From: Chiloscyllium plagiosum
Lineage: Eukaryota
DNA: 64,000 nt
Direction: 5' to 3'
Assembly: GCF_004010195.1 (NCBI RefSeq)
Contig: NC_057719.1
Coordinates: 7,969,280 to 8,033,279 of the forward strand
The notes beneath the pieces are model-generated. The model was not told the origin of the DNA. It searched no databases and was given only the letters and a program-made list of their open reading frames with translations. Below, in pieces: positions 1,692-61,000 of this stretch; the first letter of the stretch is position 1; every line of letters begins with the position of its first letter. The translations under genes were made by a program, and so were the position numbers.

Positions 1692-1796
1692 CATATGGAT
1701 GTACTCCACAACCACCTGATGAAGGAGCAGCGCTCTGAAAGCTAGTGCTTCCAATTAAACCTGTTGGACTATAACCTGGTGTTGAGATTTTTAGCA
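1692..1796 (+). mobile_element. Penelope-like terminal-repeat remnant with minimal hammerhead motif (family B)
   Basis: CAC-CTGATGA-A-GGAGC agc GCTCT-GAAA-GC-TA-GTG at 1713-1747, then cctgttggactataacctggtgttg shared with the copies at 34063 and 36660. Confidence 0.8.
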
Positions 1797-2199
1797 TTCA
1801 AGAAGGTAATAGAGTTCGTGCTTGGAGCTAAAAGGATCAAAAGTTATTGCGGGTTGCGGGGGGGATGGAGTGAGATAGAGTACTGAGTTGGATGATCAGC
1901 CATTATCATACTGAATGGCATAGCAGGCATATAAGGTTGAATGGCCTACTCCTGCTTTTTTCTATGTTTCTACGTTTCCTGGTTAATAGGCAGGAGACAA
2001 TGTGGCAAATGTACATGCATTGCAGTTTGAGATAATGAATATTAGTGATCCTGGCAAATGTGGCTTGATAGGAACATTTAACTTCAGCAGGTTTGAGGTG
2101 CTGGAGAAAATGAACTTTGTTCAGCTCACACTTAATTCAAAGTTTTGCTTCCACCTTCCAAGTCTTTTGATACTGTTGCATTGCTCTTGGCCCTGAAGG

Positions 2200-2520
2200 A
2201 GCATTGAGGGACGGTTGCACTGTTGCAAACATTATCTTTTTATGAGAAGTTAAATTGAGGCTCAGTTGCAAGTTCAGGTTTGCAAAGAATCCTATCACAT
2301 TATTTTTGAACATCAGAGGAATTCTCCCAGTGTGTTGACAAATACTTACCTTTACTCTAAAACCTTCCAGAACAACTGTTCGTTTTTCTAATTGGTGTTT
2401 GTGAAGCCTCCTTGTGTGTAAATTGACTGCTGCATTAGTCGACGTAACAACAGTGGTTGCACTTCAAAAAATATGTAATTAGCTGTTAAAAGCATGGATA
2501 TATCCCAAGGACGTACAGTT
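2200..2520 (+). mobile_element. Decayed Deu-SINE (SacSINE1-like)
   Basis: gcattgagggacggttgcactgttg...atgagaagttaaattgaggc...aaattgactgctgca...acaacagtggttgcacttcaaaa, similar to the copy at 18245. Confidence 0.6.
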
Positions 2521-2649
2521 ACATTTTTTTTACTTCGTCTCCACATTCCTTACTCACTTGATCTATTTTTGGCATCTTACTATCTCCTAATTTCTCCCTA
2601 TTGAGATTTTTTCTTCATTTTGTAGAATTTACTGTCTCTGTCTCGAGGA

Positions 2650-2890
2650 CAGAAATGAGGGGATTTCTTTTCCCTTAGAGGATTGTGAGACTTTGGCACG
2701 CAGAAAGGATTAAGAGTTGGGTCATTGAATATTATTAAAGCAGAGGTAGGTACACTCTTAGATAAAGGAATCAGTAGTTATCGAGGATGGATGGGAATGT
2801 GGAATTTGAAACAAATAAACTAGCCGTGATCTTACTAACTGGTGGAGCAGGCCTGGGGTCTGAGTGACCTACTTCTGTTCTTGATTCAAA
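2650..2890 (+). mobile_element. CR1 3' fragment
   Basis: agaaatgaggggatttctttt...gagtgacctacttctgttc, the CR1 3' end pattern. Confidence 0.65.
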
Positions 2891-3726: not shown

Positions 3727-3872
3727 ACATAGAGTCATAGACTCATAGAGATGTACAGCACGGAAACAGACCCTTCGGTCCAACTCGTCCATGCCGACCA
3801 GATATCCTAACCCAATCTAGTTCCAGCTGCCAGCACTGGCCCATATCCCTCCAAACCCTTCCTATTCATATG
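3727..3872 (-). mobile_element. Short HER1/CR1 3' tail
   Basis: catagagtcatagactcatagagatgtacagcacggaaacagacccttcggtccaac is the reverse complement of the LINE tail at about 54360-54492. Confidence 0.88.
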
Positions 3873-4052: not shown

Positions 4053-4934
4053 GGTTACGACATGGACGTTAACCCCTCTGTTAATTAAACCAAACATCCA
4101 GAAAAGCTCACCTCGTCTCATAATCTGTTAAAATATGAGTTCCAGAGAACTCCCGAATTCCATTATTTAAAGAAAATAAAAGTGGACATTAAACAACAAC
4201 TGTTCACAAATCTAAGTCCTACTTTCTCTTAACTTCTACTACTTGCCTCCAACTCAATTATAATATGCTGTTCTAATAAGACACTTAGTAGAATTACATC
4301 AACTTAATTTCAAAACCACACAGTCTCTGTCTCCTGTGTCTTCACTCTTCCGGCTGTGGATCTCCCTGGATCGTTGCCTTTTGTTTTACTGGGAGTATAT
4401 TTCACATGAGAATGTAGCTTTGATAGAGTGTGTTTCCTAATTTCTTGGAAAGCACGATATTATATTGACAGCTAGCTCTCTGGCTCTACGCTAGTTGTTC
4501 TCTGACTAATTTTCAAAATGTCCGCCTTCTTATGTTCCCCAATATCGGACTGTGTCGTTGATTTGATGTTGGCAAAACAATAAATTAAAACACGATTAGG
4601 GGGTTTTAGTATTGTGGGGCCCAATTTAAACTCAAGATTAGAATGGTGCTGGTAAAGCACAGCAGGTCAGGCAGCATCTGAGGAGCAGGAAAATCGATGT
4701 TTCGGGCAAAAGCCCTTCATCAAGATGTCAACTGATTGGCTAAATTCAAATTTTTGTCAAAACAGCAACCAAAACTCAGGTATCCATTTCAAATATTATG
4801 TTTATATGTTTTCAATTTTTCAGTACACTTTGGGATTGCCACGCAGTCCTATTCACAGGTGTTTGTAATCTCTCAGTTTAGAACAGCATTCTCTCTCGCT
4901 TAAAGGTACAATACATGCCTTCAATTTCATAACA
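4053..4934. mobile_element. Solo-LTR-like element
   Basis: Termini (g)gttacga ... tcataaca approximate the TGTTACGA/TCGTAACA inverted ends of Gypsy-type LTRs; non-coding. Confidence 0.5.
4635..4725 (-). mobile_element. Penelope-like remnant (family A) with degenerate hammerhead
   Basis: Minus strand tTGATGA-A-GGGC tttt GCCC-GAAA-ca-TC-gatt followed by ttcctgctcctcagatgctgcctgacctgctgtg. Confidence 0.8.
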
Positions 4935-8944: not shown

Positions 8945-9660
8945 TCTTTTTATTGGTTCATGGGATGTCAACATCACTGTTTAGGCCAGCATCTTGTGCC
9001 CATTTCTAATTGCACCGGAAAAGGTGGTGGTTCTTGAACTGCTACAATCTATGCATTGTGAAACACACATCATCCTGCTCAGAAAGGACTTCCGGAATTT
9101 TGACTGTGGAGAAATTACATTATAGCACCAAGTCAGGAATGTATGTGATTTAGAGGGGAACTTGCAGGTGGTGTTACCATGCATTTGCTACCCTTGTCCC
9201 TCTAGGTGGGTGGTGGTAGCAGCTTAGGAAGTTGCTATTGAAGGACTCTTGGAGAATTACTAGAGAAACATCTTGTAGGAGGTACATGCTATTGCCATTA
9301 TGTATAATTGATGAAGGAAGTGGGTATTGAAGATGGTGGTTGGGGTGCCAGTCAAGTGGGTTGCTTTGGGCTGGATGGTGTTGAAATGTATGAGGAGAAA
9401 GTGAGGGCTGCGGATGCTGGAGATCAGAGCTGAAAATGTGTTGCTGGAAAAGCGCAGCAGGTCAGGCAGCATACCTGAAGAAGGGCTCATGCCTGAAACG
9501 TCGATTCTCCTGCTCCTTGGATGCTGCCTGACCTGCTGCGCTTTTCCAGCAACACATTTTCAGCGGTGTTGAAATGTATGCGTGTTGTTGGGATTGCACC
9601 CATCTAGACATGAGGAGAATATTTCATCACCTTGACTTGATACTGCAAATTCCTTGTAGA
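8945..9660 (-). mobile_element. L2-like LINE 3' fragment interrupted by a Penelope-like cassette
   Basis: Reverse complement of the family seen at 40725-41465 (ccatccaggacaaagcagcccacttgatt..., tail cccatgaatgaat). Confidence 0.7.
9393..9564. mobile_element. Penelope-like fold-back cassette (family A) with hammerhead core in the loop
   Basis: 16-bp TSD ggtgttgaaatgtatg (9377-9392, 9565-9580); perfect 44-bp inverted repeat (9429-9472, 9521-9564); CTGAAGA-A-GGGC tcat GCCT-GAAA-CG-TC at 9475-9502. Confidence 0.9.
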
Positions 9661-9973: not shown

Positions 9974-10072
9974 GTTCTGAGGAAGAGCCACTGGAGCTGA
10001 AATGTTAACTCTGCTTTCTCTCTACAAATGCTGCCAGACCTGTTGAGCTGTTGAGTTTCTCCTGCAATTTCA
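9974..10072 (+). mobile_element. Penelope-like remnant (family C) with degenerate hammerhead
   Basis: GTT-CTGAGGA...GAAA-tg-TT-AAC then tctgctttctctctacaaatgctgccagacctg. Confidence 0.7.
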
Positions 10073-10084
10073 ACTATCGTTCGT

Positions 10085-10300: not shown

Positions 10301-11227
10301 ATCCAATTTAATCAACTGCTTGGAAGTCTCAAAAAAGAACTGAAATGAGGCTACATTGGTTCCAGATATAACAATGGCAAACACACCACTGTCAACTATG
10401 TCAACATCTGAGACTAATCAAAATAAGGAGAATTCTCAAACAGACTAAATCATACTCACAGAATCATTTTTTATAATGTGCGAGATAATAGCGTCATCAT
10501 TTCTAGGTGTGTTATATAGTCATGCAGGATTGAAACAGATCTTTTGGTCCAACCAGTCCACACCGACCATGTTCCCAAATTAAACTAGTGCCACCTGCCT
10601 GCGCTTGGCCCATATCCCTCCAAACTTTTCCTGTTCATGTACTTATCCAAATATCTTTTAAACATTGTAACTGTACCTGCATCCACCACTTTCTGGTAGT
10701 TCATTCCACAGTGACCCATTCTCTGCATAAAAAAGTTGCCCCTCATCCTTTTTAAGTCTTTTTCCTCTCACCTCAAAAGTATGCCCCTAGTTTTGAAATC
10801 CCACACCCTAGGGAAAGGACCCATTCACCTTATCTATGCCCCTCAGGATTTTATAAATCTCTATAAGGTCACCCCTTAACCTCCTATGCCCCATTGAAAA
10901 GTTCTCAGCCTATCCAGTCTATATTTTTATATCTCAAACCATCTATTCTTGGTAACACCCTGGTAAATCTTTTCTGAACTCTCTCTGGTTTAATAATATC
11001 CTTCCTATAGCAGGACAACCAGAACTGCACAAAGTACTCCAGAAGAGGCCTCACCAATATATTGTACAATCTCAACATGACATCCCAACTCCTATACTCA
11101 AAGGTCTGAGCAATGAAAGCAAGCGTGTTAAACAGCTTCTTCGCTATCATGTCTACCTGTGATGTAAATTTCATAGAATTATGTACCTGAACCCTTAGGT
11201 CTCTTTGCTTTGCAATACTACCCAGGG

Positions 11228-11308
11228 TTGAGAGTGTGTTGCTGGAAAAGCACAGCACGTCAGGCAGCATCTGACAAGCAGGAAAAATCGATGTTTCGGG
11301 CCGGCCCA
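11228..11308 (-). mobile_element. Truncated Penelope-like remnant (family A) nested in CR1
   Basis: gtgtgttgctggaaaagcacagcacgtcaggcagcatc...aatcgatgtttcgggc; the CTGANGA half of the hammerhead is missing. Confidence 0.75.
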
Positions 11309-12313
11309 TTAATTATACATGTCCTGTCCTTGTTTGAACGACTAAAATGTAGCACTTCGCATTTATCCAAATTAAACTTCATCTGCCACTCCTCAGCCCA
11401 TTGACTCTCTTTGTAATCTTAGGTAACCTTCTTCACTGTCCACTTCACCAATAGTTTTGGTGTCATCCACAAACTTACAAACCATGCCTCCTGTATTCTC
11501 AACTACATCATTAATGTAAATGACAGACAAAAGTGAACCCAGTACCAATTCCTTTGGAACACTGCTAGTCACAGCCCTTCAATCTGAAAAATGACCTTCC
11601 ACCACCACTCTCAGTATTGTACTGTAAAGCCAATTTTGTATCCAGTTAGCAAGCTCACCCTGAATCCCATGTGATCTAACATTACTAATTAATCTACCAT
11701 GCAGAACCTTGTCAAAGGCTTTACTAAAGTCCAAGTAAATAACGTCTACCACTCTGCATATGTCTTTTTGGTTACTTCATTAAAAAACTCAAACAAAGTC
11801 TGTGAGACACGATTTTCCTTGCACAAAGTCAAGCCGACTATTCCTAATCAATCCTTGCCTCTCCAAATGCATGTAAATCCTATCTTTCAGAATCACCTCC
11901 AATAACTTAACCTACATCGATGTCAGACTCACAGGTCTATAGCTTCTAGGCTTCTCCTTATAGCCTTTCCTAAACAATGGCACAACAGTAGCCACTCCTG
12001 CTGCCCCCCTCCCATGTTTATAGATTATACAAATATTTCTGCTAGGGGTCCCACAGAGTTTCCCTAACTTCCTACAATATCCTGGGATACACCTGTTCAG
12101 GTTCAGGAGATTTACCCACTTTTATGTTTTCCAAGACCTCCAGTTTTCCCCTTCTGTAATGTGAACTGTTTTCAAAGCATCAGTATTTATTTTCCTGAGT
12201 TATCTAGCCTCCATTTCTTTCTCAATAGTAAAAACTGGCACGAATATTCATTTAATATCTCTCCAATTCCTGACATTCAACAAAAAGATGACCTTGTCAA
12301 TCTTTAAGGGGTC

Positions 12314-12317
<4 letters not shown>

Positions 12318-16114: not shown

Positions 16115-16291
16115 GGTAAGCTGGCTGTTAATGGAGAAGAATCTGTGAGGCAACTGGAGCAAATGACATTTCAGCTTAATGATCAAATCAGAAGAATCCA
16201 AACAGAGCAAGAGACAATCCTTTGTTCTGTGGGAAAAGAAATTGATGCTGCGTGTGATTTCCTCTCCAGAGATCCTGGTGACAAGTTCAAA
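16115..16291 (+). CDS. CEP128: CEP128 (centrosomal protein 128) internal coding exon, 177 bp, phase 0/0
   Basis: Acceptor tgtgctttctgcag|, donor AAA|gtaatc. Encodes GKLAVNGEESVRQLEQMTFQLNDQIRRIQTEQETILCSVGKEIDAACDFLSRDPGDKFK, matching my recollection of vertebrate CEP128 (GKEIDAAC motif). Splices in frame to the next two exons. Confidence 0.9.
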
Positions 16292-19774: not shown

Positions 19775-21335
19775 TTGATCACAGTATTCCAGGAATATAA
19801 AAAACAGAACGTGCTCGAGAAAATCTGGAAGCATCTGTGGACAGACAGCAGAGTCTTCATCAAAACTGAAAAGATCCAGAAAATGTTGGTTTTGGTGCTG
19901 TTGACAAACGGTTTGGAGGAGGGGGTGGAACAGACGGTGAGGATGCCTAGAGCAAAAGACAAAGGGAGTGTTAATGGTGGTAAAGGAGGTCTAAGATGTA
20001 ATGCAGGTGCAAGGGATAGATTTGAAATGAGTTAGTTGCAAAGCCAACAAGATACAAGAAAGACACAGTGGGTTGGGGAGGGTGGGATTGAATGGCTGGT
20101 AGAGATTATTCGCCAAAGTTGTTGACCTTAGTGCTGAGGCCTGGAGTGTTGTTCATTTTCCACTTGGTCACTTCACAGCCTCAAGGACTCGACATTAAGT
20201 TCATCTCTGGAAAATGGCTGCTGTTCTCCATGTTGATACGTGCACTCACACACTCACACTCTGGCTCACATACTCACTCTTTCACTATCCTCTCTCACCC
20301 ACACATTCACTCACACACACACACACTCTTTCTCTCATGTACACTCTCTCTCACACACACACACACGCGCACACACAGCCTCTCTGCCTCTAACTTATCA
20401 AGTCCCCAAAGATTTCGAGATGGCCTGTGCTTTCTCTCTTGCTCACTCACTCTCTTACTCACTCAGTCACTCTCACTCTCGTTCCCTCTGTGTGTGTGTC
20501 TCTCTTTCTTTCTCTCAGTCTCTCATTCATATGGGTGCACACCCACACACTCATTCACACATGTACACACATACACGTGTGCATGTTCACACACACTCTC
20601 AGTCTCACACATATTCTCACCCCCTCTCACACGCATGCTCTCACATGCCTGTAACTTATTAAGCCCCCAAAGATTCCAATATGGTCAGCTTACATACACA
20701 CTCTTTCACTCACACACACAAACACACATACACTTACATACACGCTCTCAGACACAGAGACTCTCTCTCACACACACTGTGTCTCTCTCTCTCTCTCACA
20801 CGCGCGTACACACAAACATGCTCTCACACGCGCACGCGCACACACTCTCTCAAACGCATGCACACTCACTCTCACACACACACAAAGACTCTCTCTTTTT
20901 CACACTCTGTCTCTGTCTCTCATGCGTGCGCACACACACACACACAATCTCTCTGTCTCTCTCATACACACACTCTCCTACATCCCCCACCCACCCCTAA
21001 TTCTGTGCCTTCTATGCATCTTCTCGGTTTTGCTTTCAGACAGACCCATTGTCTCCACTCACATTTATTATTTACTCCTATTTTACATCTCTATCTCTCC
21101 TTTACCATTATCAGTTCTCCCTTTATTTTTTGCCCTAGGCACCCATACCTTTCATTCCACTTGTTCCTTCTACAGTCCTGTCAACAACATAAAAAAAATT
21201 TTTCCAGACCCTTCTAGTTCTAAAGAAGTGTCATGATAAAATTGAAGTGTAAACACTGTTGCTCCCTCCACAGATATTCCCAGACCTGCTGTGTTTCTCT
21301 GGCATTTTATGTTTCTATCCCTGGAATATTGTGAA
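19775..21335. mobile_element. Old inverted Penelope-like remnant with roughly 300-bp arms and GIY-YIG C-terminal relic
   Basis: ggatgcctagagcaaaagacaaagggagtgttaatggtggtaaagga is the diverged reverse complement of tcctttaccattatcagttctccctttattttttgccctaggcaccc; the centre encodes FIFHLVTSQPQGLDIKF. Confidence 0.7.
20240..20980. repeat. CA/CT-rich low-complexity compound microsatellite
   Basis: Imperfect (CA)n/(CT)n over about 740 bp; the source of the His/Thr/Ser-rich spurious ORFs. Confidence 0.95.
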
Positions 21336-21914: not shown

Positions 21915-21992
21915 ATATGTAAGTTAGCTGGCTGAGTTTGAAGGGTTGTTTTCAGACTTTTTGTCACCATACTAGGTAACATCATCATCAGT
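21915..21992 (-). mobile_element. Penelope-like remnant (family D) with degenerate long-stem-II hammerhead
   Basis: Minus strand a-CTGATGA-tgat-GTTACC tagtat GGTGAC-aAAA-ag-TC-tg; flanked by ttctgc at 21909-21914 and 21992-21997. Confidence 0.6.
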
Positions 21993-24600: not shown

Positions 24601-24660
24601 GCAATAACACTTACACATGGATTAGAAAACGATCCCCATCGCTGGCTGGCTGAAGTGAAA
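24601..24660 (+). CDS. CEP128: CEP128 internal coding exon, 60 bp, phase 0/0
   Basis: Branch-like ctaat, acceptor tttctttgcag|, donor AAA|gtacgt. Encodes AITLTHGLENDPHRWLAEVK; DPHRWLAE is the CEP128 motif as I recall it from the human protein. Confidence 0.92.
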
Positions 24661-24873: not shown

Positions 24874-24931
24874 CCAAAACAGAAGTTGAGCCTTCTGAGG
24901 AAGGGTCAGAGGACCTGAAACATTTTTTAAA
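24874..24931 (+). mobile_element. 58-bp insertion dominated by a hammerhead core (family C)
   Basis: 14-bp TSD tttaaaattttgaa (24860-24873, 24932-24945); CTGAGGA-A-GGGTC agag GACCT-GAAA-ca-TT at 24895-24924. Confidence 0.75.
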
Positions 24932-26400: not shown

Positions 26401-26667
26401 GGCACTACTGCCTCACAGCGCCAAGGACCCGGGTTCCATTCCACCCTCAGATGACTTGCCTGTGTGGAGTTTGCACATTCTCCCCGTGTCTGCATGGGTT
26501 TCCTCTGGGTGCTCCAGTTTCCTCCCACAGTACAAAGATATGCAGGTTAGGTGGATTGACCATGCTAAATTGTTCATAGTGTCCGGGGATGTGCAGGTTA
26601 GGTGGATTAGCCATGGGAAATGCAGGGTTACAGGGATAGGGGAGGGGGTGAGTCTGGATGGGATTCT
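26401..26667 (+). mobile_element. HE1-type V-SINE
   Basis: gcctcacagcgccaaggacccgggttccattcc, V core tgtgtggagtttgcacattctccccgtgtctgc...tttcctcccacag. Confidence 0.88.
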
Positions 26668-26919
26668 AATCTCAATAAACAAGTGAAATGGACCTGACAT
26701 CACTTGTGGTGAAAGATTAATTTTGTACTGTAGCATGCTGGAAAATTATTACTTTTTTGTTTATTAAAATTTTCGCATGTCAAACATTGGATGTATTCCT
26801 TTGGACTCTTAAAAAGCCATTGATCATCTGTGATAATCCACATAATGACCTTTGTTAAAACAAGAACAATAATGTGAAAAACATAGTGTTGGAAATATGC
26901 AAATACTTTGAGACCCAAT

Positions 26920-34062: not shown

Positions 34063-34267
34063 GCTGTGGAGGTGCTGGTGTTGGCCTGAGGTGGACAAAG
34101 TCGGAAGTCACACAACACCAGTATGTAGTAGCCCAATGAGTTTATCTGAAATCACAAGCTTTCAGGGTGCTGCTGCTTCGTCAGGTGAAGTGATGAAGGA
34201 CCTGGTGAAGGAGCAGTGCTCTGAAAGCTTGTGATTTCAAATAAACCTGGTGTTGTATGACTTCTGA
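34063..34267. mobile_element. Penelope-like fold-back cassette (family B) with two divergent hammerhead motifs
   Basis: TSD cattatta(t/c)taa (34051-34062, 34268-34279); minus motif 34153-34187, plus motif 34199-34233. Confidence 0.8.
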
Positions 34268-34392: not shown

Positions 34393-34585
34393 ACCAAACT
34401 ACAGTGGCTATGTGAAGAAATGAAGGAACGAGAAGGACGAGAGCTCAAACTACGATCCCACCTCCGACAGTGTCGTGTGCAGTTGAAGGAACTCCTACAG
34501 GACAAGGAGTCCGAGAGTCAGCTTTTCATAGAGCAAATCGCAAAGCAAGAACGTCTTCTTGAGGAAATACACAAGGAAAAAAGAG
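34393..34585 (+). CDS. CEP128: CEP128 internal coding exon, 193 bp, phase 0/1 (absent from the ORF track)
   Basis: Branch-like gactaac, acceptor attgctttttag|, donor GAG|gttagt. Encodes TKLQWLCEEMKEREGRELKLRSHLRQCRVQLKELLQDKESESQLFIEQIAKQERLLEEIHKEKR, a coiled-coil matching recalled human TKLQWLCEELKERENREK...QEQLLDEIHREKR. Confidence 0.92.
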
Positions 34586-37929: not shown

Positions 37930-38695
37930 GAAAGGATGGTATTTCTTATAACATCGTTCACAATCCTGCATCTCAAAATGTTTTACAGGCAAATGCTATT
38001 CATTTTGAACAGTAGTCATGTTGTGATGTAAGCTGTGATGAGACAGTGGCTCAGTGGTTAGCACTGCTACCTCACAGCACCAGGGACCTGAGTTCAATTC
38101 CAGCCTCAGGTGACTGTCTGTGTGGAGTTTGCACATACTCCCCGTGTCTGTGTGGGTCTCCTCCAAGTGCTGCAGTTTCCTCCCACAGTCCACAATGTGT
38201 AGGTTAAATGGATTGGCTGTGCTAAATTGCCCATAGCGTTAAGGGGTGTGCAGACTAGGTGGATTAGCCATGGGAAATGCACGGCTACAAGGATAGTGTA
38301 AGAGGTTAGGTTCAGGTGGGATGTTCTTCAGAGGGTTGGTGTGGACTCAATGGGCCAAATCCACACTGTAAAGATTCTATGAAAAATATCAGTCAAGTTG
38401 TATGTAGAAAATCCCCACAGACAGCAATGAGATAATGACCAGACAAGTTTTGTTTTGGTGATTATGGTTGACCAGAACACAGGTGAGAATTCCCTTACAC
38501 TCTTTCCAAAAGTGCCAGGTGATCTCTTCTGTTCACCTGAGAGGGTGGGCAGGATGGTTTGTTTAAGGTCCATTCTGAAATAAGCAGCTCTCTAGCACAT
38601 CCCTTTCTGTCCTGCTTGACATGTTCAAATCTATGGAATGAAGACTTGACCCTCCAAGCCTTCTGACTCTAGGGGACAGTCTACTCAGTAAGCTG
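37930..38695 (-). mobile_element. Decayed Deu-SINE split by the HE1 SINE at 38042-38382
   Basis: ttttgaacagtagtcatgttg...cccacagacagcaatgagataatgaccagac...ttcacctgagaggg...ccttctgactc. Confidence 0.65.
38042..38382 (+). mobile_element. Full-length HE1-type V-SINE
   Basis: gtggctcagtggttagcactgctacctcacagcaccagggacctgagttcaattcc, V core, tail cacactgtaaagattctatga. Confidence 0.9.
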
Positions 38696-41504: not shown

Positions 41505-43320
41505 TCAGAGTTGATGAGCTGCTGTATAACAGAAGTAGACCCTTCAGTCCAACTCAACCTAGTCCCTTTTGGCTGCTTTTGGCCTATATCCCTCTAAACC
41601 CCTCCTATTCATATTCAAATCCAGATTCCATTTAAATGTTGTTATTGTACCTGCCTCCACCACATCCTCTGGCAGCTCGTTCCATATATGCACCATCCTG
41701 TCTGAAAAATTACCTCTCAGGTTCTTTTAAGTCTTTCCCGTCTCACTTTAAACTGACATCCTCTAGTTTTGGACATCCCACTCTACGAAAAAGGCTTTGG
41801 CTATTCACACTATCTATGCCCCTCATGACTTTATAAACCTCTACAAAATCACCCCTCAGCCTCTGACACTCCAGGGGAAAAAACCCAGCCTATTCAGCCT
41901 CTCCCTATAACACAAACCCTCCAGTCCCAGCAATATCCTTGTAACTGTCTTGTATAGCCACAACATGTCGTCCCAACTCCTGTACTCCATGCTCTGACCA
42001 ATGAAAGCAAGTGTGCCAAACACATTCTTCAATGCCCTATGCACCTGCGATTTCACTTTCAAGGAATTATGCAACTGCAGCCCTCGGCCTCTTTGTTCGG
42101 CACTCCCGAGGGCCCTACCTTTAACTGCATAAGTCCTGCCCTGGTTTGCCTTAACAAAATGTAGCACATTTATCTATATTAAGCTCCACCTGCTACTCCT
42201 CAGCTCATTGGCCCATCTGTTCAAGGTGCCATTGTATTCTGAGATAACCTTCCTCACTATCCACCACACTACCTATCTTGGTGTCATGTGTAAACTTGCT
42301 AACCACATCTCCTGTATTCACATCTAAGTCATTCATGTAAATGACAAAAAGCAGTGGACCCAGCACCGATCCTTGTGGCACACTGTAGGTTAGAGGCTTC
42401 CTGTCTGAAAAGCATTCCTCCACCACCACCCTCTATCACCAATTGGCTAGCTCCCCTGGATTTTCATGTTACTAAATAGTTGAGCATATGGAACCTTGTC
42501 AAACGCTTTGCTGAAATCTATAGACAACATCTACTGCATTGCCTTTATCAATCTTCATTGTCACCTCTTCAAAAAAGCTGAAAATGTGTTGCTGGAAAAG
42601 CACAGCAGGTCAGGAAACCTGAAGAAGGGCTTATGCCCGAAACGTCGATTCTCCTGTTCCCTGGATGCTGCCTGACCTGCTGCGCTTTTCCAGCAACACA
42701 TTTTCAGCTCTGATCTCCAGCATCTGCAGACCTCACTTTCACCTCCTCAAAAAACTCCATCAAGTTCATGAGACATGATTTCCCATGCACACAACCATGT
42801 TGAATATCCTTAGTCAGTCCTTGCCTTTCCAAATGCATGTAAATCCAGTCCCTCAGAATAACAACAACTTACCCATCACTGACATCAGGCTCACCTGTCT
42901 ATAGTTCTCTAGCTTTTCCCTACGGCCTTTCTTAAATAATGGCACCACGTTAGCCAACCAATCGTCTTCCAGAACCTCACTTGTGGCTGTCAATGATAGA
43001 ACTATCTAAGCAATAGACCCCACAGTCTCTTCCCCAGTTTCCACAAAGTTCTAGTAAACACCTGATTAGGTCCTGGGATTTATCTACCTTTATCCATTTT
43101 AAGATCTCTAGCACCTTCTCTTCTGTAATATGAACTCTTTTCAAGATATCGCTATTTATTTATCCAAGTTCCCTAGCTTCCATATCCTTCTCCATAGTAA
43201 GTACCCACATGAAATATTCGTTTAGTATCCCACCCTTCTCATGTGGTTCTACATATAGTCTGCCACATTGATCTTTAAGGGGCCTTATTCTCCATGGTTA
43301 CTCTTTTGCCCTTAATACAC
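41505..43320 (-). mobile_element. HER1/CR1 RT-to-tail fragment
   Basis: Minus ORF VPQGSVLGPLLFVIYMNDLD...SKFTHDTKIG. Confidence 0.92.
42577..42738 (+). mobile_element. Penelope-like fold-back cassette (family A) with an intact hammerhead core
   Basis: TSD tcacctc(t/c)tcaaaaaa (42561-42576, 42739-42754); 39-bp inverted repeat with one mismatch (42576-42614, 42671-42709); CTGAAGA-A-GGGC ttat GCCC-GAAA-CG-TC at 42619-42646. Confidence 0.9.
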
Positions 43321-43379: not shown

Positions 43380-45200
43380 GACACAGGAGGGTGTGACTAT
43401 GAGCAAGGCAGGTAGAGGAACCCAGGAGTTTGTTTGAAGGAGCCTTGGCTCAGGAGTCAGGATGGGTCAGAAAATAAATCAGGAGATAAGAAAGGCATGT
43501 GAGAAAGGCAGCATTGCAGTAATCATGGGGGACTTCAATTTGCAGGTGGACTAAGAAAATCAGATTAGTAGCAGATCCCAAGGAAAGGAATTTGTGGAAC
43601 ATCTTTGAGATGGGTTTACTTTGTTCCAGCTTGCGATAGAGCACAGTGGAGAGCAGGCTGTTTAGGATTTGTTGATGTGGTAATGTTTCACTTGATTAGG
43701 GAGCTTAAGGTGAAGGAACTCCCTTGGGGCAGTGACCATGATGTGATCAAATTCACTCATCAGCTTGAGAGGGAGAAGCTGAAATCAGACGTAATGATAT
43801 TACCGTTGAGTAAAGGTACCGATATGAGGGAGGTGCTGGCCAGAGTTGTTTGGAAGAGAAGCCTAGCAGGGAAGATGGAGCTGCAGCAATGGCATGAGTT
43901 TCTGGCGATAATTCGGGAGGCACAGTGGAAATTCATCCCAAGGAAGGAGAGCGTAACAAGGGGTGGACAAGGCAACCACGGCTGGCCAAGGAAGTCAGGG
44001 ACAGAATAAATGCAAAAGAAATGTATGCAATGGTGAAATTAGTTGGATTCACCTTGGATTTGCTGACTGACAGAAGGCATACCGTGGGATTAAAGGGTTC
44101 TGTTTCAGGATAGCAGCTGGTGACTAGTGGAGTTCTGCAGAGGTGACTACAATGACTCACATTATACATTAACAATCTGGATGAAGAAACTGAGGGCGTT
44201 GCTAAGTTTGCACTTGACACAAAGAGGGACAGGTAGTGTTGGGGGGGGGGGGGGGGAGGTAGGCTGCAGAAGGACTTGTACTAGCAGTAGAGTGGGCAAT
44301 GAAGTGAGAGATAGACTGCAGTGTGGGAAAGTGTGAGATTGTGAAAAACAACCCAGAAATTGCTCAAGACCGAACAGTTCTGAAGAAAGGTCACTTGACC
44401 CAAAATGTTAACTCTGCTTTGTATCCACAGCTGCTTTGTATCCAGCAATTTCTGATTTTCAACATTAACAGTTCTTTGGTTTTATTGAGAGGTTTTGTAC
44501 ACTTTGGTATGAAGGATAGAGGCGTACACCACTTTGGAAATGGGGAAAAGCTAAGGAAATCTGAATTACAAAGGAACTTAGGAGTCCTAGTTCAAGATTA
44601 ACTTAAGGTTAACATGCAATTTTAGTTGGCAGTTAGAAAGACAAATGCAATATTTGCAATCATTTCAAGAGGTCTAGAATACTAGAACAGGGTGTACTAA
44701 TGAGGCTATATAAGGATCTAGTCAGAGTGCATTTGGAATATTGTGAGCAGTTTTGTGTCTTGTATCTAAGGAAGAGTGTGTTGGCCTTGAAGGGGCCCAG
44801 AGAAAGTTTACAAGAATAATCTCAAGGATGAAGGGCTTATCATGTGATGAGAGATTGAGGACTTGGCATCTGTACTCTGTGGAGTTTAGGAGGATGAGCG
44901 GGAGGATTTAATTTAAACTTGCAGAATACTGTGAGGCCTGGATGAATGGATGTGGAAAAGATTTTTCCAACAGTAGGAGAGATTAGGACCCAAGGGCACA
45001 GCCTCAGAGTGAAGGGCCAAACCCTTAGAACTGAGATGAGGAGGAAATTCTTCAGCCAGAGGGTAGTTAATCTGTGGAACTCATTGCCGCAGAAGGCTGT
45101 AGAGGCAAGTCACTGAGTGTATTAAAGACCGAGATGGATAGGTTCTTTATTAATAAAGAGATCAAAGGCTACAGGAAGAAGGCAGGAGAACGGGATTGAG
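43380..45200 (+). mobile_element. Internally deleted CR1 ORF2 (endonuclease, RT, 3' end)
   Basis: atcatgggggacttcaat (IMGDFN), ggcagtgaccat (GSDH), ttggaatattgtgagcag, gagatgaggaggaaattcttcagccagagg. Confidence 0.85.
44345..44465 (+). mobile_element. Penelope-like remnant (family C) with degenerate hammerhead
   Basis: cagaaattgct ... agcaatttctg short inverted ends; GTT-CTGAAGA-A-AGGTC actt GACCC-aAAA-tg-TT-AAC from 44377. Confidence 0.7.
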
Positions 45201-48859: not shown

Positions 48860-49360
48860 AGCATATGCAGAAAAGTTGGACTTGCTGGGTTTATACCAAT
48901 TGGAGTTTAGAAGAATAAGAGATGATTTTAATGTGATACTTATGGCCATGAGAGAGGCTATCACTGTTTAAAAAGTGTTCTGTAGCAGAGCTACATTAGA
49001 TTTGAAATGTTAACTCTGTTTCTCTTTTCACAAATGCCTGAAGACCTGCTGTGTTTCTTCAGCACTTTCTGTTTTTACCTTAAAAAAAACTTCTTCCATT
49101 TAAGATGGAGCTGAGGAGGAATTTTCTTTTAAAGGGTTGTGAATCTTTTCACCTCTGTCCTTCAGAAAGCAGTGGAGGCTGGGTCATTAGCTATTGATTC
49201 TTGACTTACAAGGTAAATTGATTCTTGACTTACAAAGGAGTTGAGGTTATCAGAACATAGGTAGGAGTTGTGGCCTCAATTATGTTAACCATGTTCTTAT
49301 TGAATGGTGGAGCACGTTTGAGGAGCTGAATGGTCTTCTCCTCTTCCTAATTTATGTGTT
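48860..49360 (+). mobile_element. CR1 3' fragment containing a decayed family-C Penelope-like remnant (about 48975-49080)
   Basis: ggagtttagaagaataagag; gaaatgttaactctgtttctc...gacctgctg...cagcactttctgttttt. Confidence 0.7.
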
Positions 49361-49651
49361 TTTACTTTGAGCCCAGCTTTTCATGCAGTCTTTGCTTCAT
49401 TCTACTTTTCTCCTTAACAGTAACTGATTAATTCTGGCACCAAATACAGTTTGCAACACTCTCCATTTATTTGTAATCAACCAATTCCAAATATGTGCAA
49501 TATATTTCAACTGCAAGCATGAACTTTAAGCAGAGAAAGAAACAATATTATCCAACTATTTTCCCCAAATAGAAATATGAGCCGTGTTGGTCCTTTCAGA
49601 ACAGAATGCACTCTCTCCAGCTCACTATTAAGAGCTTAGGATCTTTAAAGT

Positions 49652-49793
49652 CGAAGAGTGTGGTGCTGGAAAAGTACAGTCAATCAGGCAGCACTTGACT
49701 CTCCTCCTCCTCGGATGTTGCCTGACTGCCTGTGCTTTTCCAGCACCACACTCTTCGACTCTGATCTCCAGCATCTGCAGTCCTCACTTTCTC
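49652..49793. mobile_element. Penelope-like fold-back cassette (family A) lacking the hammerhead
   Basis: 17-bp TSD cttaggatctttaaagt (49635-49651, 49794-49810); inverted arms agtcgaagagtgtggtgctggaaaag / cttttccagcaccacactcttcgact; tail ctgatctccagcatctgcag. Confidence 0.88.
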
Positions 49794-50365
49794 CTTAGGA
49801 TCTTTAAAGTTTGTATCTCACAAAGTTTGTTACTCTCAGTAGTAAATAATTTTGAGGTGACACGTGTTGATGGAGCACGGGAAAAATTTCTGGCTGTAAC
49901 AGGCTGCTCCTTTTTTGAGGTATTTTAGGTGTTGGAGGTGATTTCCTCGAATTCCAGGAGCAGCAATTACTGTTTTATGTGCTATTGCGATTGTTTTGGA
50001 ACTTTGAACAAGAAAGTTAAAACAACAGCACTTTTACAAGGGAGAAAGACAGACAAAGGCAGCAAGCACATGATCTGTAAGGGAGAGAGAGAAATTAACC
50101 CACACTGCTAACTGACACAGCAGTAAATCTGCACAGTTACTGCCTTCGCTGTTTGAATTCATGTATTACTGGACATCAGAATGTGTTGAGGAAAACTTAA
50201 CAAACAGCGAAATTCACAACTGATCTTGGAGGAACCTGTTTGGGAGAGGTCACAGCACAGAAACAGATAAGTAAATAGATTTAAGTATAGCCTTGCTGTG
50301 AATCTACAACAGTGAGTACAGTGGGTTCTTTCTTGATTATATGTTTTTATTTTGGACTCTGTCTC

Positions 50366-51630: not shown

Positions 51631-54350
51631 TAAATTAAACTGCATTTATTTCAATGCAAGGGGCCTAACAGAGAAGGCAGATGGACTCGGCATGGTTAGG
51701 ACAATGGGACTGGGATATCATAGCAATTACAGAAACATGGCTCAGGGATGGACAGGAACAGGCAGCTTAATGTTCCGGGATACCAACGCTATAGGAAGGA
51801 CAGAAAGGGAGGCAAGCGAGGAGGGGGAGTGGCATTTTTGATAAGGGATAGCATTACAGCTGTACTTAGAGAGGATATTCCTGGAAGTACATCCAGGGAA
51901 GTTATTTGGATGGAACTGAGAAATAAGAAAGGGATGATCACCTTATTGGGATTGTATTATAGACCCCCTAATATTCGCCAGGAAGTTGAGAAACAAATTT
52001 GTAAGGAGATCTCAGTTACCTGTAGGAATAATAGGGTGGTAATGGTAGGGGATTTTAACTTTCCAGACATAGACTGGGACTGCCATAGTGTTAAGGGTTT
52101 AGATGGAGAGGAATTTACTAAGTGTGTACAAGAACATTTTCTGAGTCAGTATGTGGATGTACCTACTAGAGAAGGTGCAAAACTGGACCTACTCTTGGGA
52201 AACAAGGCAGGGCAAATGACTCAGGTGTCGGGGGTGGGGGAAGCACTATACAGCCGATGACCTTAATTCTGTTAGTTTTAAAATAGTGATGGAAAAGAAT
52301 AGACCAGATCTAAAAGTTGAAGTTCTAAATTGGAGGAAGGCTAATTTTGACGGTATTCGGCAAGAACTTTCAAAAGCTGATTTGGGGCAGATGTTCGCGG
52401 TTAAAGGGATGGCTGGAAAATGGAAAGTCTTCAGAAATGGGATAATGAGAGTCCAGAGAAAGTATATTTCTGTTGGGGTGAAAGGAACGGCTGGTAGGTG
52501 TAGGGAATGCTGGATGACTTGAGAAATTGAGGGTTTGGTTAAGACAAAGGAAGCATACTTCAGGTATAGACAGGAGAAATCGAGTGAATCTTTAAAAGAG
52601 TATAAAGGCAGTAGGAGTATACTTAAGAGGGAAATCAGGAGGGCAAAAAGGGGGCATGAGATAGCATTGGAAATTGGGTAAATGAGAATCCAAGGGGATT
52701 TTATAAATACATTAAGGACAAAGGGGTAACTAGGGATAGTATAGGGCAAGGCAAGCCTATGTGTGGAGCTGCAGGAGATGGGGGAGATACTAAATGAGTA
52801 CTTTGCATTAGTATTTACTGTGGAGAAGGACATGGAAATAGTGGGGAAATAGATTGTGACATCTTGAAAAATGTCCATATTGCAGAGGAGGAAGTGCTGG
52901 ATGTCTTGAAACGCATAAAGGTGGATAAATCCCCAGGAGCTGATCAGGTGCACCCTAGAACTCTGTGGGAAGTTAGGGAAGTGATTGCTGGGTCCCTTGC
53001 TGAGATATTTATATCATCAATCGTCACAGGGGTGAGGTGCCAGAAGACTGGAGGTTGGCTAACATGGTGCCATTATTTAAAAAAGGTGGTAAGGACAAGC
53101 CAGAAAACTATAGACCGGTGAGCCTGACGTCAGTGGTGGGCAAGTTGTTGGAAGGAATTCTGGGGGGACAGGATGTACATGTATTTGGAAAGGCAAGGAC
53201 TGATTAGGGATAGTCAACATGGTTTTGTGCGTGGGAAATCATGATTGAGTTTCTTGAAAAGTAACAAAGAGGATTGATGAGGATAGAGCAGTGGATGTGA
53301 TCTATATGGACTTCAGTGAGGCGTTCAACAAGGTTCCCCATGGGAGACTAGTTAGCAAAGTTAGATCGCGTGAACCACAGGGGAAACTATCCATTTGGAT
53401 ACAGAACTGGCTCAAAGGTAGAAGACAGAGGGTGGTAGTGGAGGGTTGTTTTTCAGACTGGAGGCCTGTGACCAGTGGAGTGCCACGAGGATCGGTGCTG
53501 GGTCCACTACTTTTCGTTATTTATATAAATGATCTGGATATGAACATAGTAGGTATAGTTAGTAAGTTTGCAGATGACACCAAAATTGGAGGTGTAGTGG
53601 ACAACGAAGAAGGTTACCTCACAGTACAATGGGATTTTGATCAGATGGGCCAATGGGCTGAGGAGTGGCAGTTGGAGTTTAATTCAGCTCGATGCAAGGT
53701 GCTGCATTTTGGGAAAGCAAATCTTAGCAGGACTTGTACACTTAATGGTAAGCTCCTAGGGAGTGTTGCTGAACAAAGCGACCTTGGAGTACAAATTCAT
53801 AGCTCCTTGAAAGTAGAGACGCAGGTAGATAGGATAGTGAAGGAGGCGTTTGTTATGCTTTCCTTTATTGGTCAGAGTGTGGAGTACAGGAGTTGGGAGG
53901 TCACGTTACGGCTGTACAGGGCATTGGTTAGGCCACTGTTGGAATATTGCATGCAATTCTGGTCTTCCTATCGGAAAGATGTTGTGAAACTTGAAAGGGT
54001 TCAGAAGAGATTTACAAGGATGTTGCCAGGGTTGGAGGATTTGAGCTATAGGGAGGCGCTGAATAAGCTGGGGTATTTTCCCTGGAGCGTCAAAGGCTGA
54101 GGGGTGACCTCATAGAGGTTTATAACATCATGAGGGGCATGGATAGGATAAATAAATAAAGTCTTTTCCCTGTTTTGTGGGAGTCCAAAACTAGAGAGCA
54201 TAAGTTGAGGGTGAGAGGGGAAAGATATAAAAGAGACCTAAGGCACAATTTCTTTTCACACAGAGGTTGGTGTGTGTATGGAATGAGCTGCCAGAAGAAG
54301 TGGCGGAGGCTGTTACAATTGCAACATTTAAAAGGCATCTGGTTGGGTGT
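51631..54350 (+). pseudogene. CR1 ORF2 (APE endonuclease plus reverse transcriptase), frameshifted
   Basis: CIYFNAR, RGGGVA, YYRPPN, GDFNFP, LDLLL, KSPGADQVHPR, SGVPRGSVLGPLLF, FADD, RPLLEYC across consecutive ORFs. Confidence 0.95.
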
Positions 54351-54859
54351 ATGAATAGGAAGGGTTTGGAGGGATATGGGCCAAGTGCTGGCAAATGGGA
54401 CTAGATTTTGTTGGGATATCTGGTCAGCATGGACGAGTTGGACCGAAGGGTCTGTTTCTGTGCTGCACATCTCTATGACTCTCTGACTCTATAAGTGTTA
54501 TTGTGAATAAGAACAAGCCCTAAATCCTTTGCCCCACTAGAAAGGACACATTTCCTTCAAAATAGCACAGGTAATGGTTTTCCATTTTTCAGTTATTGTT
54601 CTGCTTCTTATCTCAAAATTGCCTGGGGTAACTTTGGCCATGTGGCCACGAAAACAAGTTAAGAGACACATATCTTTTATGTCTTCATTTTGTTTTCAGC
54701 CAATGGCTAAATCCCAAAATGAGCTAGCTACATAACCTTAAAGCATCCTAGAAATGAACAATTGTGAATCAATTTCATTAAGTAGAATGAAACAAAAATC
54801 TTAAATCCTATGAGATTAAATGCAATCCCCACTCTTGCGTATATGTGCTGTAATAGCAT

Positions 54860-56410: not shown

Positions 56411-57292
56411 ATATAAAAAGCTCAGGATCCAGAAACAATTGCTTTGTTGGTCTGGTGGATAAAGCAGCACTTTGTGTGGAACCAAGATGGCTCTAGAATG
56501 CAGTGGTTGGTCTTTGCTTAACAACTGATTTTAACCTAGGGAGTGCCTCAAGAGATTTATATTGACATTGCCGTTCTTGGTTAAGGACTCTAATAAATCA
56601 GAAAATACTCCCTCTCCTTCACTAACTGCAAATCTTTTCTTCTTTTAATAAAATTCTTCTTGAAAGTCAGGGAATTATGGCATTAAAACCTGCAGTTGTG
56701 TGAGGAACTAGCAGAAGAAGAGGAGTGGGTAGTGATTGGCAGAGGCTCAAATTGTGTAAATTTGTGGATAGTATCAAGTTGGCAAATAAAGTTAGGGGGT
56801 GTTCAACTCTTAACTGGTTGGACAATTACCAGTGGGAAAAATCAGAGCTTGTAGAATGATCTGAGTAGGTTAATAAATGCTAAAGCTGCAGGGCTTTTCT
56901 GTAGGCGGTTTGACTGCTTGACTGGAACAGAATGGCCTCCTTGTTGCAGTTTATCTTTATGACTGCAGCAATAGGCATCTTTAGGAGAAAAAGGGAGAAC
57001 TTTGGAAAAGAAGAGTATTGCCATCTTCAAAATGTCCCCTAACCTACAATATAAACATATCTGTTCCTTAGGTAATTCAGAACGTTAGATTAGTAGCCAA
57101 CAAAGCTTCCCTGAAAAAGAAATGACGAAAAGGTACCGTTTCTGGCTGCAATATTGTCAAGTATTATTTTACTGCAATACAGAGCACTGATAATACAGTG
57201 AGCTTGAACGGATTGCGAATAATGGCAGTGTCACGTATGATGGCTGTACTAAAGAAATCATTGCCACTGCCAGGGCCTCAGGACAAATCAGA

Positions 57293-57548
57293 TAGAGTCA
57301 CAGAAATGTACAGCACGGCAACATTCCCTTCAGTCCAACACATCCAAGCTGACCAGATATCCTAAATTAATCTAGTCCCATTTGCTAGCACTTGGTCCAT
57401 ATCCCTCTAACCCCATATAGCCATCCAGATGTCTTTTAAATGTTGTAATGGTGCCAGCCTCTACCACTTCTGGCAGCTCTTTCCATACACACCACCCTCT
57501 GCATGAAAATGTGCTCTTTAGGTCCTTTTTAAATCTTTCCCCTCTCAC
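57293..57548 (-). mobile_element. HER1/CR1 3' tail
   Basis: atagagtcacagaaatgtacagcacgg...ctagtcccatttgc...cacttctggcagct. Confidence 0.85.
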
Positions 57549-60500
57549 TGTGGATTCTTTTCTTTGGGCCAGATTTGTACAAAAATGTTATTCTTTCAGT
57601 ACTTTGCAGACCACTGCTGGTGGTCTCTGGTTACTCGATTCACATATGTTTCACTTGACACAAGTTTAGAATTATGGAAATTCCAGTCTCCTGCTCTCCC
57701 TTTCTCTGTGTTTCATCAAAGCAGTGTTGCCATCTTTAGCAAAGTTTATTTGTCATACTTAGGTGATTGCCATGCATTATCTTTATATGTTTGTTATAAT
57801 ATTCAACGAGTATGTCTAACCTGTTATAAGGTTCATCATAATTAGTGTTGGTTTCAGATTGAGCAATTTATTGTCTCTTGTTTTACTTCTATTTTAGTTT
57901 ATAGTTCTAACTTAGTAATTAAAAACGTAATTTGTAACTCTTAATTAGTAACATAAACTGCTTCTACAGAATTATGGAGCACTAGAGAGACAGTTTGGCC
58001 CATTTTACCGGTACCCAGTGCTTTGAAAGATCTATCCAATTCATTCCACTCCCCTTATAATTCCCCGTCCTGCAAACATTTCCCTTTCAAATCTACATCC
58101 AATTCTATTTTGCTTAGATTTTATCACCCATCATGAAATCAATCAGAACCCTGATGTGGATGTATTGGATTTATAATTCCAAAGCTTTTTATTCAAAAGA
58201 GAACTGCCATAACCAAAACTTAGCTGTGCTTATAAGTTGTGTGACGGTCTGAGCAGTCACATGTGGACTCATAGACTGTGATACCTGTACAGAGTCATGC
58301 AAACTTCATACAGCAAGACTAAAATGAAAGAGATAATGAGAGACTGACTACGCCATCCCAATGCCCCACCAGGAAGACAGCTCCCAAAGATATATTATTG
58401 TTCTCCACTTCCAGGGATATATGAAGTGATGGGTTAAAAACCGAATGCAAGTGTTTCTGTGTTAGTGGCCTGACGTGCTAGGCTGTGGGCCAGTTGCTGT
58501 GAAGGTCACAGCTTGAGAACGCCCCAATGCGAAGGGGAAAAAGTAAAATATTTTCTCTTGGTCTGAATGCTGTGAGCCATCCTACTGCCAGAAGGACCCA
58601 GGATAAATGAATTTCAATGAATGTACAAATAAACAAAGGATCTCAAAATCAACTGTTCAACTCCTAATATTCGTATGACAGGTACCATCCCATGTTTTGG
58701 TCACAGTGTCCCACTATCATTCTTATGAATAACTTGAAGATTGATCCAAATATCTTTCTTTGGCCACACTTGTTATTCCTCGTTTATGTGTTGTATTATT
58801 ATTTCTTTATGTGTGAAAGCCTGGTTAAATTGGCATCTTTTTACAGCATAGATTCATTTTGTCTGAGATAAAGGTATCTGCAAGGGAAGGAATTCTTTCA
58901 AAAGTAATCTTATTGCAACCAATTGAAGAGATGTGTGAATGAAGTAGGGGAGCCAAGTCATCCCTTTTCATCCAGGACCTTAATTATTTGGAGTATCCCA
59001 TCTGTAAAGTAACAAATTGGGGAACCTTACACAGGGACTGGTTGCAACAGTCATACTCTTAATTTTGTTTGGACTTATATTCCCCTGATGCCAACCCTTA
59101 CAAAATTAGTGTCTGTATTTCTGAGCTGCTTTCATTTGGAGGGTTTGGCTTAGATGGTTTTTGTTGTGAAAGCAAACACAGATTTGGAAAGAAAGTTAAC
59201 AGCCAGCAGATGTACCCACTGACTCTGAAATTGCTGAGCTGTGAAGTATTTTGAATCTGTGGTTTACACACAAGCAGATGACACATAGCGAAGAGCACAG
59301 TGCACTGGCACTGTGTGCCAAGGAGTGATATGGTAGTGATCGATGTGTGAGGTCGTTGGCATTGGGACTCTGTTTTCACTTTGTACCAGAGGCCAATTCA
59401 GTCAGAGCAGCACTTTAAAACTGTCTAAAAAGTTATCGCTAATTATTATTGACAAAATAACACTGACCATTGACTACATCCTACATACTTAACCTTTAAC
59501 TTGCACAATCAATTACAATATATTTACCGCACAAAGGCAGGCCTCCTGGTCCAAAAGGCTCATGCTGAATTTATGCTCCAAATGAGCCTTTCACCACCAT
59601 TTCATATCTAACCCTATCATCACATTGTTCTATTCCTTCTACATAACTGGATGAATCTATACTGCTCACTTCAACAACTATTTGTGCTTGGAGAATTGGA
59701 GACGATGGGCCAAAGAGTATTTTTCTTTGCAGTAGACCTCTGTGTTTAGACCTTCTCTGGGTAAAGATGTTTCTTCTGAATTCCCTTTTGGAGTTATTAG
59801 TGGCCATCATATTTGTAGTCTCCCTTACAAATCAAAACAACATGTGTCTAAATCCCCTGTCTCTGCAACTTTACCTTACCAAGCAGCATATTAGTAGAGT
59901 GTGGAGGAGTAGAGTTGGATGGCACTGCAGGGGTGTTCTGCTGTCAGCCACATACCTTTGCTGGTATTTGATCAGGGGCTGATTGGTGTCAGGAGGTTGC
60001 CTGCTGTCAGGATGCTGGAAGTTTTTAAGTTGCTGAACAATGACCAACCCTGATGATGTGGAGGGCCTCCACCACCGTAAAGAAAGATGTGACCTCTCCC
60101 GCAGGCCCTCCCGCATCCTATTACAGCCTCACCCTTTCAGTAGGGCTGCTAGCGAGATAACACACTTATTGGTTTCTACTCTTGTTCAATGACAGGGAGT
60201 GAAGACCATCTGATAGCTGGTAGTTATCATCTGATGTGAGGCGGAGTGACTGATGGCTATAAAATCTAATCAAAGATTTCTGGTACAGTAAAATCATAAT
60301 GAACCTATTTGTAATTGCAAAGATTTCCTGCACCTCAGACTACTTTTTTCTAAGTTTAAAAAACACCGCAATATGTTCAATCTTTAATGATGGGTATAGT
60401 TTTTGAGCTCTGACATGACTCTAGTAAATCTTGTTTGCAATTTCTCCAGTAACTCTGTTTTAAAATATGGAGTCTTATAGTGTTGTGTGATCTAACAACT

Positions 60501-60886
60501 CAGGACTGGGCATCCATGAACCTTGGTGGCCCATCAGCAGCAAAGTCCGATTCAATTACAAATTGTAACCTTGAAGGCCCAGCAAATCACCTATCTGTCA
60601 TTACCACCAAATCCATCAACCCCAGTTCAATGAAGGTACAGGAGGGCACATCAGGAACAGCACCAGTCATACCTAACAACAAGGTATGACTGCTTTGATG
60701 AAGCAGTAACACTGGATTGCCTGTGGGCCATGCAGTGAAAGCATTATATAATCTACAGAGCTTAGCATTCTCACAGTTAACAGAACAGATCAGTTATGTC
60801 GCATCCAGTTATGAATGGTGGTGAGCAATTAAACAATTGAAAGGAGGAGGAGGAGGAGGATCCACAAATATTCCCATTCTCTGCAA

Positions 60887-61000
60887 AGGAGGAGAGTGGG
60901 AATATCTGTGATGGTGAAGGGCTTATGCCTGAAACATTGATTCTCCTGCTCCTTGGATGCTACCTGCCCTGCTATGCTTTTCCTGCACCACACTCTCGAC
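60887..61000 (+). mobile_element. Penelope-like remnant (family A) with decayed hammerhead
   Basis: TSD-like tctctgcaa (60878-60886, 61001-61009); tggtga-a-GGGC ttat GCCT-GAAA-ca-TT-gattctcctgctcc. Confidence 0.75.

Follow-up and report, generated by a model that had tools for sequence, protein, structure and literature searches.

Minimal hammerhead insertions in the CEP128 window

The window analyzed here, a 64-kb stretch of the genome of the bamboo shark Chiloscyllium plagiosum (NC_057719.1, positions 7,969,280 to 8,033,279), contains part of the gene CEP128 and a series of short insertions, or stubs, related to the hammerhead-bearing termini of Penelope-like elements (PLEs). With nine natural reference copies as blastn queries, 19 arms in 15 short insertions of four families, A to D, were resolved in the whole window (Table 1). 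The original prediction, made from the letters alone, had described about 15 insertions of at least four families, each with its own stem sequences; the families were found at the listed sites, and every listed coordinate bears hammerhead-like or tail sequence. However, the 15 coordinates amount to 14 insertions, 34153 and 34199 being arms of one insertion, and the list lacked the tail-only insertion at 49651-49795. It should also be corrected that the sites at 4692, 11280, 21953, and 34153 and one arm at 36762 lie on the minus strand, and that the insertions at 34153/34199, 9475, 36762, and 42619 are two-armed.

The assignment of the host gene to CEP128 was right, as three of its plus-strand exons lie in the window. 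All stubs are taken as intronic because the remaining CEP128 protein maps outside the window. A protein-atlas search with a CEP128 exon returned generic coiled-coil matches only.

Table 1. Insertions and CEP128 exons in the window (position 1 is the first nucleotide of the window)
Feature	Position	Strand	Remarks
Family B (Neptune-type by motif) solo stub	1704-1793	+	1713-1747 is the sole complete minimal hammerhead of the window; cut predicted after 1744; G-U pair at stem II base
Family A (older subfamily) solo stub	4632-4725	-	Short tail; C3 to T; palindrome decayed
Family A head-to-head pair	9392-9564	both	+ arm 9470-9564 without stem I but with intact core, stem II, and ACGT; - arm 9472-9392 consists of tail only; target duplication of 16 nt, 9377-9392 / 9565-9580
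Family C stub	9974-10052	+	Core intact, stem II broken
Family A stub	11223-11301	-	Truncated within stem II, without CUGANGA
CEP128 exon	16115-16291	+	Match to CEP128 protein
Decayed family C-like stub	21215-21314	+	Alignment covers tail 21245-21314 only
Family D (Penelope/Poseidon-type by motif) stub	21917-21991	-	GAAA to AAAA
CEP128 exon	24601-24660	+	Match to CEP128 protein
Family C hammerhead	24893-24924	+	Core and stem II present; stem I and tail absent
Family B head-to-head pair	34068-34252	both	- arm 34188-34068 (long tail), + arm 34200-34252; both decayed
CEP128 exon	34393-34585	+	100% identity to bamboo-shark CEP128 proteins
Family B head-to-head pair	36665-36845	both	Joined at 36762/36763; one long hairpin when folded
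Family A (young) pair	42576-42745	both	+ arm 42618-42745 (long tail) with core intact, stem I lost, element-frame ATG at 42665; tail-only - arm 42614-42576; target duplication of about 15 nt, 42561-42575 / 42741-42755
Family C stub	44372-44435	+	Stem I intact; GAAA to AAAA
Decayed family C-like stub	48976-49076	+	Alignment covers 49005-49076 only
Family A tail-only pair	49651-49795	both	Alignment of the long arm begins at the predicted cut position, 49697; target duplication of 17 nt, 49635-49651 / 49794-49810
Family A stub	60912-61003	+	5′ part of core lost

Architecture and integrity of the motif

In natural copies of all four families, the core CUGANGA and GAAA-NN-UH surrounds helix II with one extra base before it, and a palindromic 4-mer, ACGU in families A, C, and D and AGCU in family B, takes the place of helix III. 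The same architecture has been described for the minimal hammerhead ribozymes (min-HHRs) of metazoan PLEs (Cervera and De la Pena 2014, PMC4209133): type I without helix III, a palindrome at 15.2-16.2, one base between positions 9 and 10.1, a G10.1-C11.1 pair, and a short helix I. According to the available text of that report, min-HHRs also occur as several families per genome, mostly as single truncated copies with some on opposite strands, are present in fish Neptune and Poseidon elements, and are "massive and widespread". The class of hammerhead is thus already known; the unusual parts in the shark are the copy number and a fixed 5′ edge, as described later.

The core letters are kept in 6 of 16 window arms examined, stem II as well in four of these, and stem I in addition only at 1713. 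Seven of these 16 arms keep the palindrome, and most of the others show ACAT or ATGT, to which ACGT decays at its CpG. Judging from these letters, most copies are predicted to be unable to fold into an active ribozyme. The commonest family-A subfamilies (L004:1595-1632 and L104:5045-5082) have a stem I of only 2 bp with a U-U mismatch after it, and a young family-A subfamily with the loop CTGT has a full 4-bp stem I. The original prediction had also invoked dimer action, but paired neighbouring arms are inverted and pair with each other, so that they cannot supply the dimer partner; the head-to-head pairs fold as long hairpins (-99.6 and -113.8 kcal/mol). Such hairpins could be mistaken for miniature inverted-repeat transposable elements (MITEs) or microRNA precursors in annotation.

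A covariance model trained on 17 natural copies (threshold E ≤ 0.15) recovers 12 of the 15 originally listed sites, partly by construction, and misses 11280, 21215, and 48980. A strict descriptor matched one site in the window and none in each of 10 shuffles; with one core mismatch allowed, four matches (one mis-parsed) were obtained against three in the 10 shuffles combined. An Rfam scan of the window, in which no hammerhead model corresponds to this motif, gave no hammerhead at E ≤ 1, and a mir-335 match (E 0.19) was rejected as spurious.

Covariation was evaluated in 87 distinct natural copies, with an alignment fitted to the structure. Stems I and II are paired at 71.3%, against 60.3% after shuffling and 12-50% in slid controls, and double-sided stem changes number 101 against 31 in the shuffles. 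The stems therefore differ with pairing kept beyond both controls, as had been proposed, though the signal comes mainly from differences among the four families. Helix I is only 2 bp in the commonest family-A subfamilies.

Parent elements of the four families

The stubs were originally regarded as families of mini-elements. They are instead truncated termini of autonomous elements: all four families adjoin the 3′ end of GIY-YIG frames at other genomic loci, which provides the link to Penelope reading frames, and natural copies of the minimal type-I hammerhead sit in the pseudo-long terminal repeat (pLTR) of an element with a reverse transcriptase (RT) and a GIY-YIG endonuclease. Longer family-A copies extend upstream into the GIY-YIG frame, and RT, zinc-finger linker, endonuclease, and family-A hammerhead are found in a single stretch in L038, L057, and L060; a near full-length but broken copy lies in L102. 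The front end is represented by L241, where the tail behind the hammerhead constitutes the beginning of the reading frame; the first in-frame ATG lies 46 nt downstream of C3. The autonomous unit hence has the order hammerhead, tail (first codons), RT, zinc-finger linker, GIY-YIG, 3′ untranslated region (UTR), hammerhead, and tail. The family-A RT scores 30.2 bits with Pfam RVT_1 (cut-off 29.6). The Pfam GIY-YIG match is weak (E 0.018, below cut-off), and a Pfam search gave no match to the isolated endonuclease or to the family-B frame.

Family B is preceded in L180 by a frame of 228 residues with both linker and endonuclease, family C by a related endonuclease (best E 3e-24; L206, L212, and L221), and family D by an endonuclease (L110, L169, and L093) that lacks the linker zinc finger (L110, L169, and L277). 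The linker CX2-5CxxC precedes a C-terminal GIY-YIG with CCHH and reads CNRRRCKTC in A, CHGGRCKTC in B, and CNRRKCNVC in C. An RT with DKG and YIDD motifs lies upstream of the endonuclease in A and is degenerate in C (L212), and the sampled B sequence does not extend to the RT; no RT motif was found upstream of the eight longest sampled family-D copies, all of which are truncated. By the motif criteria of Craig et al. (10.1101/2021.04.23.441226), families A, B, and C would be of Neptune type and family D of Penelope/Poseidon type.

This organization is shared with endonuclease-positive PLEs of the Neptune and Penelope/Poseidon clades (10.1101/2021.04.23.441226; Arkhipova et al. 2013, PMC3846280), for which an RT with DKG and YIDD, a C-terminal GIY-YIG with CCHH, a CX2-5CxxC linker in Neptune that is absent in Poseidon, and a pLTR over the first codons are reported.

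Several peculiarities of individual copies should be recorded. A family-A copy in L015 (about 830-1260 on the reverse strand) lacks the RT; its N-terminal frame runs straight into the pre-linker region, and an inverted endonuclease piece lies in front of it. The family-B 3′ UTR is about 690 nt long with a (CA)n tract in L180 (reverse strand, 1278-1965) and L183, and the family-B tail contains AATAAA or ATTAAA, unlike the A and C tails. A tandem repeat of about 70 nt lies upstream of an RT fragment at L037:312-618.

Genome-wide load

The density of stubs was sampled in 140 evenly spaced 10-kb tiles on contigs C1-C40, comprising 1,360,045 called bases. The sample contains 414 arms in 309 insertions, which corresponds to 227 per Mb (bootstrap 199-256) or one per 4.4 kb, in agreement with the proposed load of roughly one insertion per 4 kb; stubs occupy 2.6% of the sampled bases. 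The 15 insertions in 64 kb are at this average, and CEP128 is not special as an insertion site. Provided that the tiles are representative, the genome total is extrapolated to about 0.8 million insertions.

The core is spanned by 241 of the 414 sampled arms; 85 keep the core and stem II, and 26 of them also a stem I of at least 3 bp, corresponding by extrapolation to about 220,000 and about 68,000 copies, respectively. An exact pattern of family-A core, stem II, and palindrome has 87,506 matches in the genome, and a control pattern has none. Published min-HHR counts, obtained with a different descriptor, are about 4,000 in coelacanth and about 9,000 in Xenopus (PMC4209133), so the shark number is above them with this difference in descriptors, and it is the largest load of the motif among the published counts compared. 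A search of the accessible literature returned no report of the motif in sharks, and no shark is mentioned in the available text of PMC4209133, while the supplementary figures of PMC4209133 and PMC11167929 may still show shark examples or 5′ boundaries.

Termini, pairs, and target duplications

In families A to C, the 5′ ends of the stubs are concentrated just before stem I of the hammerhead. Among solo A copies, 47 of 106 start within -13 to -1, one within -113 to -14, and 21 further upstream. Just before stem I start 9 of 23 solo B copies and 8 of 15 solo C copies, against one each in the next 100 nt. Family D has no such hotspot (2 of 21 against 8 in the next 100 nt). The peak is at an A base at position -4, where 16 of 144 young A copies start with unrelated flanks. 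In reads of genomic copies from another sample, the best-supported 5′ loose end among those listed is the same base (84 reads); such reads give no evidence of a transcription start.

The counts around the predicted cut site are ambiguous. Seven solo A and B copies start at +27 to +32, whereas the 49 positions on either side together have 24 (p 0.046). Of 1,499 matches, the first 100 were tallied by hand, and five of these were dropped (four internal deletions and one with an N). Starts at +28 number 15, four of them attributable to microhomology with stem I, those at +33 number 16, and other positions have 3-8; among these there is no specific excess of junctions at the cut site.

The 3′ ends fall into two classes about 35 nt apart, which correspond to the known optional tail. 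Head-to-head pairs combine one long and one short end in 55 of 61 cases in A, 33 of 35 in B, and 5 of 9 in C, and never two long ends; some calls of two short ends are due to references without the long tail. Family D has one pair in 24 insertions. Target duplications are mostly of 12-17 nt; among pairs they occur in 37 of 48 and among solo insertions in 15 of 36, whereas the control of 1,260 mismatched flanks gave 62. An inverted 5′ copy, an optional tail on one end, and a target duplication, the insertion traits of endonuclease-positive PLEs, are thus all found. The available accounts of these elements (10.1101/2021.04.23.441226, PMC3846280) likewise give heavy 5′ truncation, head-to-head inverted copies, a 30-40-nt tail on one end, and target duplication. 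The shark insertions differ in having mostly only 90-130 nt per arm and longer duplications than the 8-10 nt of the rotifer examples, and in them the long-plus-short rule and the 5′ hotspot are quantified; the available text of PMC4209133 does not mention a fixed 5′ edge at this place.

Both arms of the head-to-head pair at G000:C1:31161764-31161865 have the same 8-nt internal deletion starting at the predicted cut position, which suggests that both may have been copied from one RNA or one source copy.

Origin of the stubs

We consider it likely that the stubs are decayed Penelope-like termini, and that those of Neptune type arose by priming in the front repeat and run-off at the 5′ end of uncut RNA just before stem I. 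The RT would prime within the front repeat (the tail) of the uncut element RNA and run off its 5′ end, giving the shared 5′ edge. The template is taken to be uncut because most stubs include the hammerhead. The element protein would cut both target strands, and priming of one end at the short and the other at the long tail site would yield the head-to-head pairs. The 5′ edge may be a transcription start at an initiator-like TCATT or TCAGT, and the A at -4 is presumably the central base of this motif in A and C. The hammerhead would then be part of a 5′ UTR of 50 nt and, assisted by the protein, cut 18 nt before the ATG; such mRNA cleavage, if it occurs, would remove the cap at that distance from the ATG.

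Internal priming and run-off in the shark elements would follow the behavior of the anole Poseidon element PAc in vitro (Frangieh et al. 2024, PMC11167929), where two internal priming sites define the tail, both strands are cut, uncut RNA is the main template, and the hammerhead overlaps the front of the reading frame. The systems differ in that the shark hotspot and pairs occur in the Neptune-type families and not in Poseidon-type D, and in that the family-A ATG is after the cut site, not before it. An internal TATA-less promoter is described for Drosophila virilis Penelope.

A more specific version is plausible, though we lean slightly against it as a whole: the first base of stem I would be the transcription start, the 5′ end of Neptune mRNA would be recorded to the base in several hundred thousand run-off copies, the ribozyme would be a protein-assisted switch between uncut template RNA and decapped RNA, and a dimeric RT-endonuclease would use the short and the long tail site to prime both target ends. 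In RNA viruses, cap-independent translation linked to a ribozyme is reported, which is an analogy only for the shark elements. The 5′ edge and the pairing rule may serve as a genomic record of the start and insertion of Neptune RNA; both give specific predictions on cap position and insertion.

Two candidates were set aside. Splicing to an upstream AG at about -26 was rejected, as none of the young A copies has its 5′ end from -36 to -14. A sequence AAACGT resembling a downstream promoter element was not used, since its distance from the -4 base is +28 in C and +26 in A.

Several observations weigh against front-repeat priming and run-off. In D. virilis, the reported start is not at stem I but 46 nt upstream of an intron, and the 3′ end of this intron adjoins helix I. 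RNA reads gave no pile-up of molecule starts or ends in one single-cell poly(A) run, of which about 2% was read and in which ends are uninformative; in the same run, depth was similar on both strands and family-A sequence was present. The comparison of matches with an extra G, as an indication of the cap, gave 1,064 against 560 where about 1:2 is expected, but is confounded: among 20 cases inspected, the partner arm, filler, or host accounts for nine of the G's, and microhomology possibly for seven more. The front and rear repeats are identical, so the sequence cannot tell which was copied. Finally, the in vitro model comes from Poseidon, yet the Poseidon-type family is the one without hotspot and with a single pair.

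The main alternative, possible but rather unlikely in our judgment, is that ordinary 3′-end copies stop at -4, either by RT stalling or because a protein-bound hammerhead and tail survive 5′-to-3′ decay as a 130-nt RNA, with the edge as a footprint. The edge coincides with the first stem I base in A and C, the excess of cap-like G is confounded, and the anole protein is reported to require sequence surrounding the hammerhead and the beginning of the reading frame and to assist cleavage (PMC11167929). However, a fold would be expected to stop the RT at its 3′ base (+31), not once it has been copied, and the edge holds the same position in A, B, and C with different upstream sequences. The presumed initiator-like motif, with its A at -4 in A and C, also speaks for a transcription start rather than a footprint.

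That the stubs propagate themselves as non-autonomous elements resembling short interspersed elements (SINEs), MITEs, or retrozymes, with the hammerhead making their own small or circular RNAs, seems very unlikely. Their very high copy number, near-identical young copies, and hairpin form with target duplications would suit such elements, and animal retrozymes have been proposed to derive from Penelope termini (bioRxiv 10.64898/2026.07.22.740005). These non-LTR retrozymes, which are reported in one cartilaginous fish, are likewise short non-coding hammerhead-bearing derivatives of Penelope termini, but form head-to-tail tandem arrays, whereas the window stubs are solo or head-to-head. In addition, junctions and flanks vary between copies, with 5′ ends from -13 to +97, the same termini run into coding sequence in longer copies, and only 26 of the 414 sampled copies keep the core, stem II, and a 3-bp stem I.

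We give still less credence to active intronic hammerheads that cut or regulate CEP128 pre-mRNA. Twelve of the 19 arms lie on the strand of the gene, the stub at 1713 is complete, and family-A sequence occurs in RNA reads; on the other side, 15 of 16 arms lack the core, stem II, or stem I, the hairpins of paired arms would mask the motif, the window density equals that of the genome sample, and a single minimal motif was not cleaved in vitro (PMC4209133). The stubs in CEP128 introns are likely neutral passengers, and little effect on CEP128 is expected because only 1713 is complete, a lone minimal motif is uncleaved in vitro, and the paired arms are inverted. The remaining explanation, chance matches to a short consensus in ordinary repeats, could appeal to the lack of an Rfam hammerhead match and the many copies failing the descriptor, but is in effect refuted by linkage and covariation, with the motif at its published place in the element, no strict match in shuffles, and the excess of double-sided changes.

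Other repeats in the window

The first random genome sample, of 784 kb, has matches to about 41% of the window. A long degenerate (CA)/(CT) microsatellite tract occupies 20238-20965. A dispersed SINE-like repeat, which we take to resemble shark HE1, lies at 26457-26703, 27352-27633, 29520-29820, 32902-33199, 38046-38396, and 63021-63122. Long dispersed fragments resembling long interspersed elements, presumably similar to CR1, occur on both strands at 10573-11755, 41549-42980, and 53032-54492.

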